From an uncultured Nitrososphaeraceae archaeon (GTDB lineage: Archaea > Thermoproteota > Nitrososphaeria > Nitrososphaerales > Nitrososphaeraceae), in assembly GCA_963765895.1 (NCBI GenBank), contig CAVXZB010000019.1, forward strand, positions 64,001 to 128,000: DNA of 64,000 nt, written 5' to 3'. The notes below the pieces were generated by a model. The model was not told the DNA's origin. It was given only the letters and a program-made list of their open reading frames with translations, and did no database searches. Positions 21,280 to 30,610 of the stretch are shown in pieces. Positions within the stretch are counted from its first letter, which is position 1. Every line of letters begins with the position of its first letter. A program made the position numbers and the translations under genes.

Positions 21280-24200
21280 ATGAAAAATTTAGTTATTGTT
21301 GCCGTGGCTGCCGTAGTTTTGTCGGCGATACTTCCGCTAAGCACTTATGGAATATCTTTCTCGAAGAGCAAGAAAGATTCAGGCGGAAGTTCAGGGTCGA
21401 CCGACTCCCCGGACAACGGTAAAGCTAATTCAAGAAATTCTGAACAGCTACCGTCAACTGAAAGCAGTCCTGGGACACCATTGCAAACGATAATTCCGCA
21501 ACCACCAACTGATAACAACGGACAACCACCAACTGATAACAACGGACAACCACCAACTGATAACAACGGACAACCACCAACTGATAACAACGGACAACCA
21601 CCAACTGATAACAACGGACAACCACCAACTGATAACAACGGACAACCACCAACTGATAACAATCCTGCCATCTCGTCACCAGGACAAACATCTCCTGAAA
21701 ACCTAACCGGACCAACGGAAAGTTCTACACAGCAGTCAAATCCACCTGAAAATGCTACAGGACCCCAACAACAATTTGGAGCGCCTCAGAATGCTACAGG
21801 ACCCCAACAACAATTTGGAGCGCCTCAGAATGCTACAGGACCCCAACAACAATTTGGAGCGCCTCAGAATGCTACAGGACCCCAACAACAATTTGGAGCG
21901 CCTCAGAATGCTACAGGACCCCAACAACAATTTGGAGCGCCTCAGAATGCTACAGGACCCCAACAACAATTTGGAGCGCCTCAGAATGCTACAGGACCCC
22001 AACAACAATTTGGAGCGCCTCAGAATGCTACAGGACCCCAACAACAATTTGGAGCGCCTCAGAATGCTACAGGACCCCAACAACAATTTGGAGCGCCTCA
22101 GAATGCTACAGGACCCCAACAACAATTTGGAGCGCCTCAGAATGCTACAGGACCCCAACAACAATTTGGAGCGCCTCAGAATGCTACAGGACCCCAACAA
22201 CAATTTGGAGCGCCTCAGAATGCTACAGGACCCCAACAACAATTTGGAGCGCCTCAGAATGCTACAGGACCCCAACAACAATTTGGAGCGCCTCAGAATG
22301 CTACAGGTGGTCAAGCGTCAAAAAATGCACAAGGACCTACTCTTGCGCCGACAGGGCAAACTCTAGCTCCTGAAAATCTATCAACCGAGAAGTTCCAATC
22401 GATCTTACAGAGTTCCTTACCATCTCAGGGATTAGAGCCTACGCAACTATCCAAGGCAGCCTTAGGCAGCCGAACAAGCCACTACCGGTGGGCAACTGCC
22501 AGCCAATGCAGGTGCGTCGGGAGGAGCCTCTCTCGTAAGTTCAGGAGCAACTCAAAATGCAGCGCAGCTGCTGCAGCTGCAACTGCCGCAGCAGCCGCTG
22601 GCGCATCACCAGCAGCACGCGCAGCCGCAGCTTCAGCGGCCTCTAGTGCAGCTGGAAAAGGCGCAGCTGGCAGCAGCTGCAGCAGCCGCATCTGCAGCAA
22701 CAGCCGCTGGTGCATCACCAGCAGCAGCCGCAGCGCGCAGCAGCTGCAGCAGCAGGTGGCGCAACTTCAGCAGCAGCTGGAGCAGCAGCGTCATCAGCTG
22801 GTGCATCATCTGCAGCAGCCGCAGCGCAGCTTCAGCCGCATCGCAGGTGCAGCAGCAAGTGGAGCATCAGCGGCTGGTACTGCCGCAGCCGCAGCCGCAG
22901 CCGCTGTATCCGCAGGTGCCTCACCTGGTGGGGCAGCCGCAGCAGCCGGCAGCAGCAGCAGCGTCATCAGCTGGTGCATCACCTGCAGCAGCCGCAGCAG
23001 CAGCTTCAGCCCGCCGCAGGTGCAGCAGCAAGTGGAGCATCAGCATCTAGCGCTGCTTCAGCAGCCGCATCTGCAGCAACAGCCGCTGGTGCATCACCAG
23101 CAGCCGCAGCAGCCGGAGCAGCTGGAGGCAGCAGGTGGCGCAACTTCAGCAGCAGCTGCAGGCAGCAGCGTCATCAGCAGGAGCATCATCAGCAGCAGCC
23201 GCAGCAGCAGCTTCAGCCAGCCGCAGGTGCAGGCAGCAAGTGGAGCATCAGCAGCTGGTACTGCCGCAGCCGCAGCTGCAGCCGCTGTATCCGCAGGTGC
23301 CTCACCTGGTGGGGCAGCCGGCAGCAGCCGCAGGCAGCAGCAGCGTCATCAGCTGGTGCATCACCTGCAGCAGCCGCAGCAGCAGCTTCAGCCGCCGCAG
23401 GTGCAGCAGCAAGTGGAGCATCAGCATCTAGCGCTGCTTCAGCAGCCGCATCTGCAGCAACAGCCGCTGGTGCATCACCAGCAGCCGGCAGCAGCCGGCA
23501 GCAGCTGCAGGAGCAGGTGGCGCAACTTCAGCAGCAGCTGGCAGCAGGCAGCGTCATCAGCAGGAGCATCATCAGCGAGCAGCCGCAGCCGCAGCTTCAG
23601 CCAGCTCGCAGGTGCGAGCAGCAAGTGGAGCATCAGCGGCTGGTACTGCCGCAGCCGCATCGGCCGCGAGCAGCGGCTGCAGGTGCCTCACCTGGTGGGG
23701 CAGGCAGCAGCAGGCAGCAGCCAGCAGCCGCTACAGCAGCTGGTGCATCACCAGCAGCAGCCGCGAGGCAGCGAGCTTCTGCCGCCGCAGGTGCAGCAGC
23801 AAGTGGAGCATCAGCGTCTAGCGCTGCTTCAGCAGCCGCATCTGCAGCAACAGCCGCTGGTGCATCACCAGCAGCCGCAGCAGCCGGCAGCAGCTGCAGC
23901 AGCAGGTGGCGCAACTTCAGCAGCAGCTGGAGGCAGGCAGCGTCATCAGCAGGAGCATCATCAGCAGCAGCCGCAGCAGGCAGCTTCAGCCAGCCGCAGG
24001 TGGCAGCAGCAAGTGGAGCATCAGCAGCTGGTACTGCCGCAGCCGCATCGGCCGGAGCAGCGGCTGCAGGTGCCTCACCTGGTGGGGCAGCAGGAGGACG
24101 GCAGCAGCAGCCGCCGCTACAGTAGCTGGTGCATCACCAGCAGCAGCCGCAGCAGGCAGCTTCAGCCGCCGCAGGTGCAGCAGCAAGTGGAGCATCAGCA

Positions 24201-25241
24201 TCTAGCGCTGCTTCAGCAGCCGCATCTGCAGCAACAGCCGCTGGTGCATCTTCCGCAGCTGCATCCGCAATATCCTCCTCGATTTCATCGTCTGCAGGCA
24301 GCAGCATCAGCAGCATCATCGCTTCTAAAATCTCCAGTCTCATCTGCAGCAGCCGCAGCCGCTGCAGCTTCCTTTGCAGCTCAAAATGCCGGAGCTTCAT
24401 CTGCAGCAGCCGCAGCCGCAGCCTCAGCAGCATCTAGTGGCAGGAGCAAGCGGAGCATCAGTAGCTGGTCACTGCCGCTGCAGCAGCAGCCGCAGCGCAG
24501 CCGCAGGTGCCTCATCCGGTGGGGCAGTAGCCGCAGCGCAGCAGCCGCCGCTACAGCAGCTGGTGCATCATCAGTAGCCTCCGTGGCCGCAGCCTCAGCA
24601 GCATCTTCAGCCGCAGCAAGTGGAGCATCATCAGCCGGAATTGCGTCTGCAGCTGCAGCAGCCGCTTCAGCAGCTGGTGCATCACCAGCAGCCGCAGCAG
24701 CCGCAGCAGCATCAGCGGCAGGAGGCGGAGCAGCAGCCGGAGCAGCCGGCAGCAGCATCCGGTGCTGGTGGTAGCGCCTCAACAGCGTTGGCCGCAGCAG
24801 CCGCAGCCTCCTCAGCAGTGGCTGCCGGATCTTCTGTTGGTGGAGTAGCAGCCGCAGCAGCCGCAGCAGCATCCGGTGCTGGTGGATCAGCCAGCGTGGC
24901 AACAGCCGCAGCCGCAGCTGCCGCCGCTACAGCGAGCTGGTGCATCACCTGCAGCAGCATCAAGTGCAGCAGCAGCGGCATCAAATGCCGCGGCTAGCGG
25001 ATCCTCAGTTGTGGGTTCGTCTGGTGTGGCGTGCCGGCAGCAGGCAGGCAGCAGCCGCTACAGCAGCTGGTGCATCACCTGCAGCAGCATCAGCAGCCGC
25101 TTCAGCAGGCAGCATCAACAGCAGGGAGCGGAGCCTCATGTTCTAACGTGGCAGCAGCTACTTCGGCAGCTGCTTCGTCAGCAGGAGCACCACCAGCAGC
25201 AGCCGGCAGCAGCCGCAGCAGCAGTAGGATGTCGTAAATGA
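21280..25241 (+). CDS. Large secreted repetitive protein (~1300 aa): signal peptide, Pro/Gln/Asn tandem arrays and a silk-like Ala/Gly/Ser region with many apparent indels
   Basis: MKNLVIVAVAAVVLSAILPLSTYG signal; the GCN-codon frame recurs throughout 22.5-25.2 kb and ends AAAAAAVGCRK-TGA at 25241. Confidence 0.8.
21499..21663 (+). repeat. 24-bp tandem repeat x7 (QPPTDNNG)
   Basis: Unit caaccaccaactgataacaacgga. Confidence 0.97.
21751..22307 (+). repeat. 39-bp tandem repeat x14 plus a partial unit (NATGPQQQFGAPQ)
   Basis: Unit aatgctacaggaccccaacaacaatttggagcgcctcag. Confidence 0.97.
22680..24250 (+). repeat. About four higher-order repeats of ~385 bp within the GCA/GCC-rich region
   Basis: Marker tcacctggtggggcag at 22921, 23302, 23688 and 24075. 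Confidence 0.85.
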
Positions 25242-25269
25242 GACACTGAATCAATCCAAAATAGACTGG

Positions 25270-25300
25270 CGCCAAACCCGTTTGGCGTTTCTATTTTTAT
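25270..25300 (+). terminator. Hairpin plus T-rich tract after the silk-like gene
   Basis: CGCCAAAC-CC-GTTTGGCG followed by tttctattttt, ~30 nt after the stop. Confidence 0.55.
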
Positions 25301-25860
25301 TGAAATTAGTAAATATGAGAAGGTTTTTTTAATGGCTACTTTAGACCTGGCTTACCTGAATCCATTACAACAACGCAAGCTTTTCAGATACTCTCTTCAT
25401 TATTTTACCAAAATAAATCCCAGATATGCCGTATCAACTGATGCACCACGAGAATATTCTCAAATCTATTAATCCCAGTTTGGGTTCAAGGAATACCTGA
25501 ACCCTTAAGTCTTATTGCTTCCTGCAGACAGAGTAAAGGATTGATAGAGGTATAAGCAGGAACACTGTCATATCGACAATATACAAAGGAATGTATATAC
25601 ATCTTATAGACTCATGAACAACTAGATAATAATACTTGTAATCTGGTGACTGTTTTACAGGAGTGATTCCTTAGGTTTAACCGGTCAATATGTATAAAGA
25701 TTGATTGGATAAATAATAGAAAAGTTGCGAGATTCCATAAGCCCTAAGACATCAAGGAGACTCTATTTTTCGCTTTTTGATCTCATTTTTGATTTGGATT
25801 ATTCTTCAGGGCCCCGTCAATTTTTTCCAAGAACTTATATTTTGGATATAAAATGTAGAT

Positions 25861-28616: not shown

Positions 28617-29597
28617 TTAAAATAGGTATCTTGCAATATCTAGTGAGGCATATGTGATTATCTTGTCTGCACCCGCTCTCTTAGCTGAGGCAATAGATTG
28701 AACCATCCATTCTAGCTTGTCGATCCACTTGCGCTCTGCTGCCTGCCTTTATCATCGCGAATTCTCCAGAGACTAATTGTAAAGCGATGGGGAAGTCCCC
28801 AATATTATCCCTGACCATTGGAAGTAAATCCAAATATGTAAGGGTGGGCTTTATCATAACTATATTGGCTCCCTCGTCAATATCGGCGACGATTTCCCTT
28901 AGTGCTTCACGCTGATTACAGTAAGAGAGCTGATAGCCTCGATTTATCGATGTAAGGCTTTCCTCGAAGTGAGCTGAGTGAATGCCAACGCTCGAAAAGG
29001 TGCGTATAAATTTGAAGAGTGCTTTGCAGAAAACGGCATTATCTTGACATCCTTAAAACCGTGTTCATTAAGCGACCTGCGTATACGATATACTTGACCA
29101 TCCATCATGGAAGAGGGTGACACTATATCAGCGCCAGACTCAGCATGACTAACCGCTATTTTGGACAATAAATGCAGTGTTGCCTCATTCTCAACGTACT
29201 TCATATTATAATTTGTGACTCCACAATGACCACTTTCATTATACTGACAGATACAGACATCAGTAATTATCAGTACTTTGTTCCCAAATTCGTCGCGAAT
29301 TCTTCTCGCCGATCGTTGAACAATTCCTTGGCTATTTGATGCCCCAGTTCCTTTCGAATCGCGAGTGTTTGGAACTCCAAACAATATGAATGAACGTATC
29401 CCTACTTCGAGACAGTTATAAACAAGTCTAAATAGGTCATTCTCACAATTCGGCACTGCAGCAGGTATCATTTCATTTTGGTTTATTTTTTTTCTTTCAT
29501 AAATAATAAGAGGCATTATAAGCTGCTCCCTTCTGAGGCCAGCCTCAGTAAGGATAGTTTCCAGTTGTCTATTCGGTTGGATCCTACTTATTCTCAC
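28617..29597 (-). CDS. hemB: Porphobilinogen synthase, frameshifted in the 3' third
   Basis: DVCICQY..GHCG, GADIVSPSSMMDG and YAPFR; downstream pieces DIDEGANIVMIKP and KRAGADKIITY. Confidence 0.92.
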
Positions 29598-29680: not shown

Positions 29681-30610
29681 ATGGATGGAATAACTATAGG
29701 GATTCCCTCGTACAACGAAGAAGGGAATATAACTAATCTATTGAAATCCATTATTTCATCCAATATTAACGGGATATTAGTCAAAGAGGTGATAATCTCG
29801 GATGACTCTACAGATTCTACTCCGCAACTGGTTGAGGACTTCATTAAACAAAATCGACTGCAAAATATCACCGTTTATCATCATGGAATCAGAAGAGGAA
29901 CTGCTGCCTGCCTGGAGCGAGATATTTAACAAAGCATCCGGAATAATAATAATCCTATTTGATGCTGATGTTATTATCGATAGGAACTGCATTTCAGAAT
30001 TAGCAGGATCTCTTGCCAAAAATGAACTAGTAGGGCTATGCGCAACCAACCAGATCCCTATTGACGCAAGAGGTATTAGCGGCAAAGCATGTTCATTTAT
30101 CATGGAATGGCTTCGCTCGCTGAGGCAGAAGGAGCTTTCAAAGTACACGGTTATGGGGCGAGCACTGGGTATACGGACGGATGTTGCAAAAACTCTTCAA
30201 ATTCCTGAAGAAGTTATCGCAGTGGATCTTTATCTCCAGTACTCAGTTATGAAGATGCAACTGAATGTCATCTATAATGATAAGGCCAAAGTGTACTTTA
30301 AACCGCCGACAAATCTGTTAGAATTTTCATCTCAGGTGATTAGGGCTCGAAATGGACATAAACAGGTGACTAATCTACCAGTTGAACTCAATTTGGAACC
30401 ATCATGGAGATCACTATTCGGAAGTATACTGAGTTCTATAAGATCCAAGCCGGTGTGCGCAGCTGCGCAGCCACATCTTTATTAAGCGTACCGTATTTTT
30501 CCAGAAAACTAGAAGACACCAATGATGCGAAATGGGATACGTCTAAATCTACCAAGTCTATAGATTACGATGAATTTATTTCGAAACAGAACATGGAGAA
30601 TAATACTTGA
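29681..30610 (+). CDS. Glycosyltransferase family 2, frameshifted
   Basis: IGIPSYNEE, ISDDSTDST and FDADV motifs across overlapping ORFs. Confidence 0.85.

Follow-up and report, generated by a model that had tools for sequence, protein, structure and literature searches.

We analyzed a window of 64,000 nucleotides from an uncultured Nitrososphaeraceae archaeon (G000:C19:64001-128000; G000 is the source assembly, with 4.9 Mb in 88 contigs and a genome GC content of 36.8%; other assemblies and contigs are named in the same manner). On the plus strand, at positions 21247-25241, one intact gene read in an alanine frame was found, and the 41 frame breaks that interrupt it in the record were shown to be assembly errors. 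The encoded protein belongs to an undescribed, narrowly distributed family of extreme composition. An earlier inspection of the letters alone, in the following called the sequence-only reading, had described an N-terminal signal, a Pro/Gln/Asn-rich stalk, approximately 2.7 kb of GCN-rich DNA with poly-alanine blocks, two cysteines, and a hairpin behind the stop codon. All of these were recovered at their coordinates, together with two tandem-repeat blocks in the stalk and a linker behind it. The GC content was found to be 64-68% across approximately 22500-25200, compared to 32-40% in both flanks. The same reading had proposed one open reading frame (ORF) of about 1,300 amino acids broken by indels, and this was borne out by intact orthologs, an excess of synonymous changes, independent contigs, and the path of a codon model.

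Frame breaks in the alanine gene are assembly errors

Within the GC-rich part the phase of the GCN codons shifts over and over. A single-frame ORF of 1,175 amino acids reads one and the same DNA repeat by turns as Ala-, Gln-, or Ser/Cys/Arg-rich text. This ORF is an artefact, which stays open because stop codons are very rare in every frame of GCN-rich DNA. As had been supposed, the poly-Gln and poly-Ser stretches come from reading off-frame. Orthologous loci were located via ribosomal protein S3Ae. Upstream of the rpS3Ae gene, contigs G004:C126 and G002:C90 were found to encode 747 and 789 amino acids, respectively, each in one open alanine frame, with the tails ...GSGASCSNVAAATSAAASSAGASSAAAAAAAAAVGCRK (G004) and ...VGCSK (G002) directly before the stop. 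On the 5' side both orthologs are truncated, as their contigs end within the stalk repeats, and the missing N-termini were found at the ends of contigs G004:C68 and G002:C180, both of which stop in the same repeats. Programmed frameshifting was dropped as an explanation, as the orthologs require none.

Between 22375 and 25238 the codon-model path passes through 41 frame events (32 single extra, 2 double extra, and 7 missing bases) and restores 945 codons from the first to the last of these positions, ending in VGCRK. The first break, at 22465, lies already inside the non-repetitive linker. When G000 was aligned with G004, 48 gaps were counted in the 2.0 kb alanine region, compared to 26 gaps in 10.3 kb of flanking DNA; 32 of the 48 were 1-nt insertions in G000, mostly an extra G or C beside GCAGC. 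The errors mostly consist of one extra base that turns GCAGC into GGCAGC or GCGAGC, and they pile up in the alanine region because this word is so frequent there (GCWGC density of approximately 59 per kb). The noise is linked to sequence context and not random, since 721 nt of stalk repeats were found to be perfect. As to its cause, we can only guess that base calling falters where GCAGC is methylated.

As independent DNA, short contigs from four public soil/plant metagenome runs (four studies), none of which covers the whole stretch, were aligned to 22300-25400. At 90-99% likeness they may come from close relatives and not from the same strain; skip joints are frequent in them, as expected for short contigs in repeats, and were not taken as variants. 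All 12 listed indels (at 22465, 22562, 22948, 23011, 23161, 23886, 24099, 24154, 24470, 24495, 24536, and 25108) lie within 2 nt or less of a predicted event and correct it, and 21 further indels were found beyond those listed. At 22465, contigs from 2 of the 4 runs are without one base. One 300-nt contig differs from G000 by 2 mismatches and 5 gaps. The open alanine frame expected by the sequence-only reading was seen in the two single-frame orthologs.

The same type of insertion was found in further genes of G000. The amoA gene (PF12942) at G000:C24:168102-168652 is split into three frames. It is identical to the G004 gene at 740/751 positions (98.5%) and carries two 1-nt insertions compared to it, one of which makes GGCAGC from GCAGC on the other strand; amoA is intact in G001, G002, G004, and G005, all from the same genus as G000. 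The presence of amoA, even though split, identifies the host as an ammonia oxidizer, in agreement with the earlier assignment. The hemB (ALAD) gene at 28944-29597 of the window is truncated, with a match restricted to profile positions 3-206 of 317. Near it, at 28742 and 28937, G000 has one extra base each compared to G004; the extra base at 28742 and a further one at 29907 show the form GCTG[C]C, the error type also seen in the alanine gene. The ortholog in G005 (G005:C63:79000-87500) contains 41 similar frame events although the amoA gene of this assembly is intact, and P0143, the only database protein found via the linker, runs off-frame just past the linker. The motif-linked insertion artefact extends beyond the G000 assembly.

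If the breaks were genuine, the G000 organism would carry a decaying pseudogene or a phase-variable gene. The 41 events in the record, the same number in the assembly of a second species (G005), and the off-frame run of P0143 are in line with this explanation. Nevertheless, it is very improbable: at none of the 12 listed places do near-identical contigs of other runs carry the extra bases, the same insertion type breaks amoA and hemB, which an ammonia oxidizer needs, and two species have intact genes under purifying selection. Furthermore, 25 of the 32 insertions adjoin GGCAGC-type words compared to 13% of all positions, a count which is partly circular, as the insertion itself makes the word.

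Selection and composition of the alanine domain

The codon columns of the alanine region were compared between G004 and G002. A total of 259 columns were identical, 290 synonymous, and 82 nonsynonymous (82/631), with 75/22/334 differences at the first, second, and third codon position. Only one gap, of 4 amino acids, separates the orthologs over 635 amino acids. For S3Ae of the same two genomes 112/82/29 columns were obtained, with 29/223 nonsynonymous, and the alanine domain is therefore constrained like a ribosomal protein. When all six frames were compared, nonsynonymous changes were rarest in the sense alanine frame, which is also free of stops. Second came the antisense Ala-like frame (255 synonymous, 115 nonsynonymous, 2 stops), and the other four frames were almost all nonsynonymous. 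The plus strand was assigned mainly because the frame is continuous with signal, stalk, and linker.

An antisense gene in the Ala/Asp/Pro-rich reading or a non-coding repeat in place of a plus-strand gene, as might be supposed from long antisense open frames in G000 and every relative and from the wobble positions that the antisense Ala-like frame shares with the sense frame, is practically negligible, as the sense frame is free of stops and counts fewer nonsynonymous changes than the antisense frame with its 2 stops, runs on from stalk and linker in the orthologs and in a paralog also into a C-terminal domain with 142 relatives, and lies between a promoter-like box and a terminator hairpin that match the plus strand. 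As an observation of its own, the long antisense frames, Ala/Asp/Pro-rich and found beside every family member, extend in the window over 22482-24984 of the minus strand. By sharing wobble positions with the sense frame they mimic selection, and gene callers could annotate them wrongly.

The alanine domain comprises 635 residues in G004 and 631 in G002 (A 63.1, S 18.0, G 9.8, T 2.4, P 1.9, and V 1.9%) and 888 residues in the window (A 61.4, S 17.5, and G 11.0%). The shorter orthologs may reflect a true difference in copy number or collapsed repeats. In the 635-residue domain 3 charged residues, 1 aromatic residue, and no N-x-S/T sequon were counted. Alanine runs of at least 7 residues occur 16-26 times per ortholog, the longest with 11-13 residues. 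Of the Ala codons, 75% (301/401) end in A or T. A foreign origin of the GC-rich island was considered and dropped, as its GC derives from GCN positions 1 and 2 and the wobble position is mostly A/T, as expected in an AT-rich host; the high GC content follows from the amino-acid composition and is not a sign of foreign DNA.

Architecture of the gene

The features of the gene are as follows.

21220-21225, plus strand: TTTATA box as a candidate TATA element of archaeal type, 27 nt ahead of the GTG start
21247-25241, plus strand: whole gene, approximately 1,321 codons after reading through the 41 frame errors, stop codon TGA at 25239-25241
21289-21375, plus strand: candidate export signal in translation, hydrophobic LVIVAVAAVVLSAILPL followed by STYGISFS-KSKK
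21499-21662, plus strand: stalk repeat 1, PPTDNNGQ, 24 nt x 6.8, 100% matches, 0 indels
21751-22307, plus strand: stalk repeat 2, NATGPQQQFGAPQ, 39 nt x 14.3, perfect, one N-A-T sequon per copy
22375-22546, plus strand: conserved linker STEKFQSILQSSLPSQGLEPTQLSKAA..., in another frame after the extra base at 22465, homologous to the linker of the paralog
22547-25238, plus strand: alanine-rich array, 888 residues after correction, approximately 43 units of approximately 18 amino acids, GAS[P/S/A] plus an Ala-rich stretch
25139-25141, plus strand: first Cys codon (GASCSNV...), kept in G002 and G004
25230-25232, plus strand: second Cys codon (VGCRK, then stop); the final two units are framed by the two Cys
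25258-25297, plus strand: hairpin followed by a T-run, -19.4 kcal/mol, z = -4.24

The start codon GTG at 21247 is kept in 4 of 4 orthologs, compared to 3 of 4 for the ATG at 21280, which is missing in G005. The GTG is thus the more likely start, and the ATG chosen by the sequence-only reading the less likely one. The corrected protein has approximately 1,321 residues from the GTG or 1,310 from the ATG. The spacing of TTTATA, about 21 nt, and ACT GTG is common to G000, G002, G004, and G005, and an mRNA from this box would be leaderless or near-leaderless. The hydrophobic N-terminus reads ...LVIVAVAAVVLSAILPLSTYGISFSKSKKD... in the same clean frame as the stalk and is a candidate for a Sec-type signal peptide or a signal anchor. 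The pattern of a hydrophobic stretch followed by [FS][AS]-K-[KS] was also found in the paralog and in unrelated proteins that bear the C-terminal domain of the paralog.

The stalk is dominated by Q (21.5%), P (16.9%), G (13.6%), N (10.6%), and T (10.0%), and 17 N-x-S/T sequons were counted within the N-terminal 406 amino acids. Its repeats are perfect inside one genome, and the unit sequence is wholly different between species of the genus and not alignable: PPTDNNGQ and the second unit listed above in G000, PPAGTETGQT in G002, PPANEGGPTTTT in G004, and PSTDNSGQ plus others in G005. This pattern suggests that the repeats turn over fast by slippage or recombination. More fragmented assemblies break inside the stalk repeats.

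When the alanine domain was cut at G[AG][ST], a modal unit length of 18-20 residues was obtained, with GASPAAAAAAASAAASAAAS and GASAAGTAAAAAAAASAA as examples. A higher-order repeat of approximately 58/116 amino acids and a DNA period near 173-174 nt were also observed. The two cysteines lie approximately 30 residues apart, and an equivalent pair with similar spacing was found in the paralog. Behind the stop codon, 0 of 200 shuffled sequences folded as well as the hairpin, and hairpin and T-run together likely mark the transcript end.

Structure of the alanine domain

For the alanine domain, an array of short helices is favored over a disordered brush and over a silk-like sheet. The capping residues, the Ser/Thr spacing, the near-indel-free conservation, and the helices of an AlphaFold2 (AF2) model are the reasons for this preference. 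Gly as C-cap and Ser-Pro as N-cap/N1 are textbook helix capping, and alanine runs of 7-13 residues have a high helix propensity. In all five family proteins Ser/Thr pairs were underrepresented at spacing 2 (0.38-0.74) and overrepresented at spacing 4 (1.40-1.53). The AF2 model contained 34 helices of approximately 10-17 residues and no strands, and the helices were broken at the GAS(P/S)/GG sites; they are only a hint, given a mean predicted local confidence (pLDDT) of 42. The linker was modeled as three helices with pLDDT values of 53-62. A complex prediction with two copies of ortholog residues 400-746 reached a score of 0.00. One Cys opens a unit and the other closes the following unit, an arrangement that would suit a pair of antiparallel elements joined by a disulfide.

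Alternatively, the Ala/Ser/Gly domain could lack a fixed fold and extend the glycosylated stalk as a disordered, solvated brush or spacer, in the manner of PAS-type polypeptides or mucin-like regions; its role would then be that of an entropic or anti-fouling coat. We consider this unlikely, though deserving of serious attention, as the composition is very simple (of 635 amino acids only 3 are charged and 1 is aromatic), AF2 confidence is low, no structural or family match was found in Pfam, Atlas, PDB sequence, or NCBIfam searches, and the domain comes after a clearly disordered stalk. However, its positions are conserved as in a ribosomal protein with hardly any indels, whereas the true stalk cannot be aligned. 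Pro accounts for just 1.9% of the domain. The regular unit length, the capping motifs, the i/i+4 spacing of Ser, and the helix propensity of the alanine runs also speak for folded helices.

The sequence-only reading had called the protein silk- or fibroin-like and had named a minimal helical-repeat protein as a further option. A silk-like or amyloid-like fibre, with poly-alanine beta-sheet crystallites outside the cell, in a biofilm or aggregate matrix, and cross-links through the terminal Cys, would draw on the numerous alanine runs of 7 or more residues, the uncharged Ala/Ser/Gly composition, the probable export of the protein, and the conserved Cys pair. Poly-alanine beta crystallites carry the load in spider and wild-silkmoth silks. 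This explanation is nevertheless quite improbable. The Pfam-A and NCBIfam scans found no spidroin N- or C-terminal domain and no fibroin domain, and in both orthologs (G004 and G002) no GPG, GG[YLQ], GAGAGS, or (GA)3+ was counted, in spite of the poly-alanine blocks; GGX/GPGXX blocks and Bombyx-type fibroin repeats are thus lacking there. Gly-rich amorphous spacers are absent, too, and the spacers between alanine runs are mostly 6-20 residues of Ser/Gly/Ala. The depletion of Ser/Thr at lag 2 disfavors an alternating beta pattern, and AF2 at its low confidence showed helices and no strands. The silk label therefore holds for composition only. The helical-repeat option agrees better with the sequence, by its units of 18-20 amino acids, the i/i+4 Ser enrichment, and the 34 AF2 helices, the last of these from a low-confidence model at pLDDT 42.

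Family, paralog, and distribution

Various searches were made for relatives of the protein. The Pfam-A scan of both intact orthologs and the N-terminal part from the window yielded no family at E <= 1 apart from one chance-level match to Glycophorin_A. The NCBIfam scan of the ortholog gave no family and only a far-sub-threshold match of the Pro/Gln stalk to an FtsK linker. The ESM Atlas returned no usable match for the alanine protein, and the PDB sequence search only a designed poly-alanine model (E = 7.2). No relative among known non-structural families, which might have spoken against a structural protein, was found in Pfam, NCBIfam, PDB sequences, or the Atlas. The protein library search with the 746-aa ortholog gave no match at E <= 1e-3 and was swamped by 8,000 low-complexity candidates; with the linker alone it gave one match, the frame-broken P0143. 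Pattern searches of genome contigs with the linker (from an alignment and from a single linker) yielded 600 pattern matches each, of which none was confirmed. In literature listings and abstracts no paper describing Ala-rich proteins of ammonia-oxidizing archaea was found.

With the ortholog as query, matches were obtained in 8 of 121 genomes of the family and in 3 of 18 sampled genera, namely in 5 of 7 genomes of its own genus (including G000), 2 of 5 of a second, and 1 of 4 of a third. An order-wide sample of 150 other genomes (64 other genera and 20 families, none from the three positive genera) gave no match. Low-complexity queries are insensitive, and this distribution accordingly describes what was found with the ortholog query and is not proof of absence elsewhere.

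Only two large Ala-type GC islands were found in the whole of G000. One paralog is encoded at G000:C64:1-3186, and intact orthologs of it, approximately 850 amino acids long, occur in G001, G002, and G077. The paralog group shows the same type of signal, different repeats rich in N/S/E/Q/P, approximately 420-500 Ala-rich residues, and a linker homologous to that of the window gene at 41-42% identity. A C-terminal domain of approximately 150 amino acids occurs only in the paralog and its orthologs and is without counterpart in the window gene, for which no jelly-roll C-terminus was found: it ends in VGCRK, followed by the terminator hairpin and then rpS3Ae. In a library of 1.8 billion proteins this domain has 142 representatives at E <= 1e-3 and corresponds to no Pfam family. 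Its place is almost always the very C-terminus of proteins that have a comparable signal and S/T/N/G-rich linkers, and the 8 carriers scanned contain PKD, SpaA_2, or CBM14-like domains.

AF2 modeled the C-terminal domain from a 62-row alignment as an all-beta jelly roll with a pLDDT of 84.6. The model came closest to the folds of the Bacillus appendage subunits Ena2A (Z 9.1) and Ena1B (Z 8.2) and of C1q/TNF/BclA-type heads (Z of approximately 7), values which unrelated jelly rolls reach as well. Foldseek with the same model gave only weak jelly-roll matches (TM 0.3-0.4). In these archaea the domain seems to be a module that exported proteins commonly bear at their C-terminus.

Proposed export and role

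We propose the following for the protein. It would be exported via the N-terminal signal and remain tethered to the membrane if the signal is not cleaved. Approximately 330 residues of Q/P/N/T/G-rich, sequon-rich tandem repeats would then form a glycosylated stalk of variable length. The nearly uncharged Ala/Ser/Gly domain of approximately 890 residues would fold into about 43 short alpha-helices of 12-16 residues, each closed by Gly and followed by a new one opened by Ser-Pro (the GASP motif), and neighboring helices would pack antiparallel via their alanine faces with a Ser stripe toward the solvent. The two Cys would staple the last hairpin or join it to other molecules, and the whole might serve as a long fibrous module in the cell coat or extracellular matrix of a soil archaeon. 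Taken as a whole, this proposal of an exported protein with a glycosylated stalk and a fibrous module of approximately 43 helices is in our judgment evenly poised between right and wrong.

Export, also part of the sequence-only reading, is plausible: the signal, the sequon-rich and species-variable stalk with its 17 sequons, the Cys pair, and the company that the C-terminal domain of the paralog keeps with PKD- and SpaA-type proteins suggest it. For anchoring by archaeosortase or exosortase, no PGF-CTERM or PEF-CTERM sorting signal was found, as the NCBIfam scan yielded no family including the ortholog C-terminus; in the tail ...AAAAAAAAAVGCRK neither a signature motif nor a helix of strong hydrophobicity was seen. 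As to the role, we guess at a component of the cell coat or matrix that would be held on a glycosylated stalk. The runs with related DNA come from soil habitats, at small shares, which is consistent with a coat role. For Nitrosocosmicus, an absence of S-layer genes and a glycocalyx-like coat are reported (PMC11559005). A coat role would be consistent with the lack of an S-layer in some soil ammonia oxidizers described there (PMC11559005), if the present genus is comparable to them.

Several points weigh against this proposal. Export, glycosylation, and disulfides are all deduced from the sequence. The positive charges (KSKK) right behind the hydrophobic stretch are unusual for a cleaved signal. 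Among the public sequencing runs with related DNA no RNA run was listed, which bears on expression. The AF2 model is poor (mean pLDDT 42, predicted template modeling score of 0.28) and was built on a two-row alignment. The Ser-spacing test is weak, since the five proteins are related and internally repetitive, and the power spectra were not clean. Polar residues gave no heptad signal (lag 7 ratio of 0.52-1.00), in a test which covered polar spacing only, as core positions cannot be read at 61-63% Ala. The codon-position test alone cannot separate the sense alanine frame from the antisense Ala-like frame. The repeats of G002 and G004 may be collapsed, which makes the true length uncertain. Finally, the neighboring genes are housekeeping genes and give no hint on function.

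Comparison with known proteins

Spidroins and wild-silkmoth fibroins share with the alanine protein the great length, secretion (inferred here), tandem repeats, alanine runs of 7-13 residues broken by Ser/Gly, near-zero charge, and GC-rich codons. The silk terminal domains and the GGX, GPGXX, and GAGAGS motifs set them apart from the alanine protein, with its short Ser/Ala/Gly turns, its unit of approximately 18 amino acids, its archaeal host, and its features pointing to helices. The silks of bees and hornets are Ala/Ser-rich alpha-helical coiled coils. The alanine protein would resemble these aculeate silks as an Ala/Ser-rich, helical, extracellular structural protein in which small residues form the helix interfaces; however, it shows no polar heptad periodicity, its short helices would be capped every 18 residues, and no sequence relation was found. 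A similar Ala fraction and logic of helix capping are known from type I fish antifreeze proteins (approximately 60% Ala, capped alpha-helices). In contrast to them, the alanine protein contains only 2.4% Thr and hundreds of residues in about 43 units on a stalk, and their 11-residue Thr/Ser period was not found in the five family proteins (lag 11 ratios of 0.85, 0.94, 0.74, 0.63, and 0.89).

Bacillus BclA, C1q/collagen-type proteins, and the Ena subunits of endospore appendages are similar to the C64 paralog only, by signal or anchor, repeats, and C-terminal jelly roll. The repeat of the paralog is Ala-rich and not of the collagen GXY type, though, and the window gene is headless and ends after the Cys-bracketed hairpin. 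Mucin-like and PAS-type linkers and plant arabinogalactan proteins resemble the stalk at 21499-22307 in their signal peptide and their P/T/S/A/N-rich, glycosylation-prone repeats of variable length. The alanine domain differs from them by 1.9% Pro, no sequons, and conserved positions.

Genomic surroundings

The gene is neighbored by pyruvate-kinase-like, rpS3Ae, and RNase P genes, with rpS3Ae just downstream. Further upstream in the window, a thermolysin-type M4 metallopeptidase gene (14379-15611) is directly followed by an emfourin gene (15664-15975; Pfam Emfourin, E = 6e-17), and the two form a protease/inhibitor pair. Elsewhere in G000, 8.5 kb at a contig end (G000:C48:1-8530) have a GC content of 71% and are not of the Ala type; this stretch may be foreign DNA, contamination, or a chimeric join.

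Implications

In practical terms, the motif-linked single-base insertions of some assemblies are a warning, as they break genes of this kind and amoA, too. If made and exported, the protein would give the archaeal cell surface a component of extreme makeup that has not been described so far, with an uncharged domain of approximately 890 residues and 61-63% alanine. In the most far-reaching case, it would be the first prokaryotic poly-alanine structural protein, an archaeal polymer for fibres or the coat, made up of about 43 minimal alanine helices (or of silk-like sheets outside the cell). The jelly-roll-headed paralog would join it in forming the outer covering, or the matrix of aggregates, in a clade of soil ammonia oxidizers. 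We regard this as doubtful. If true, a main constituent of the envelope could have escaped notice systematically, as trypsin-based proteomics would overlook a protein with only 3 Lys/Arg in 635 residues and assemblers break on its gene.

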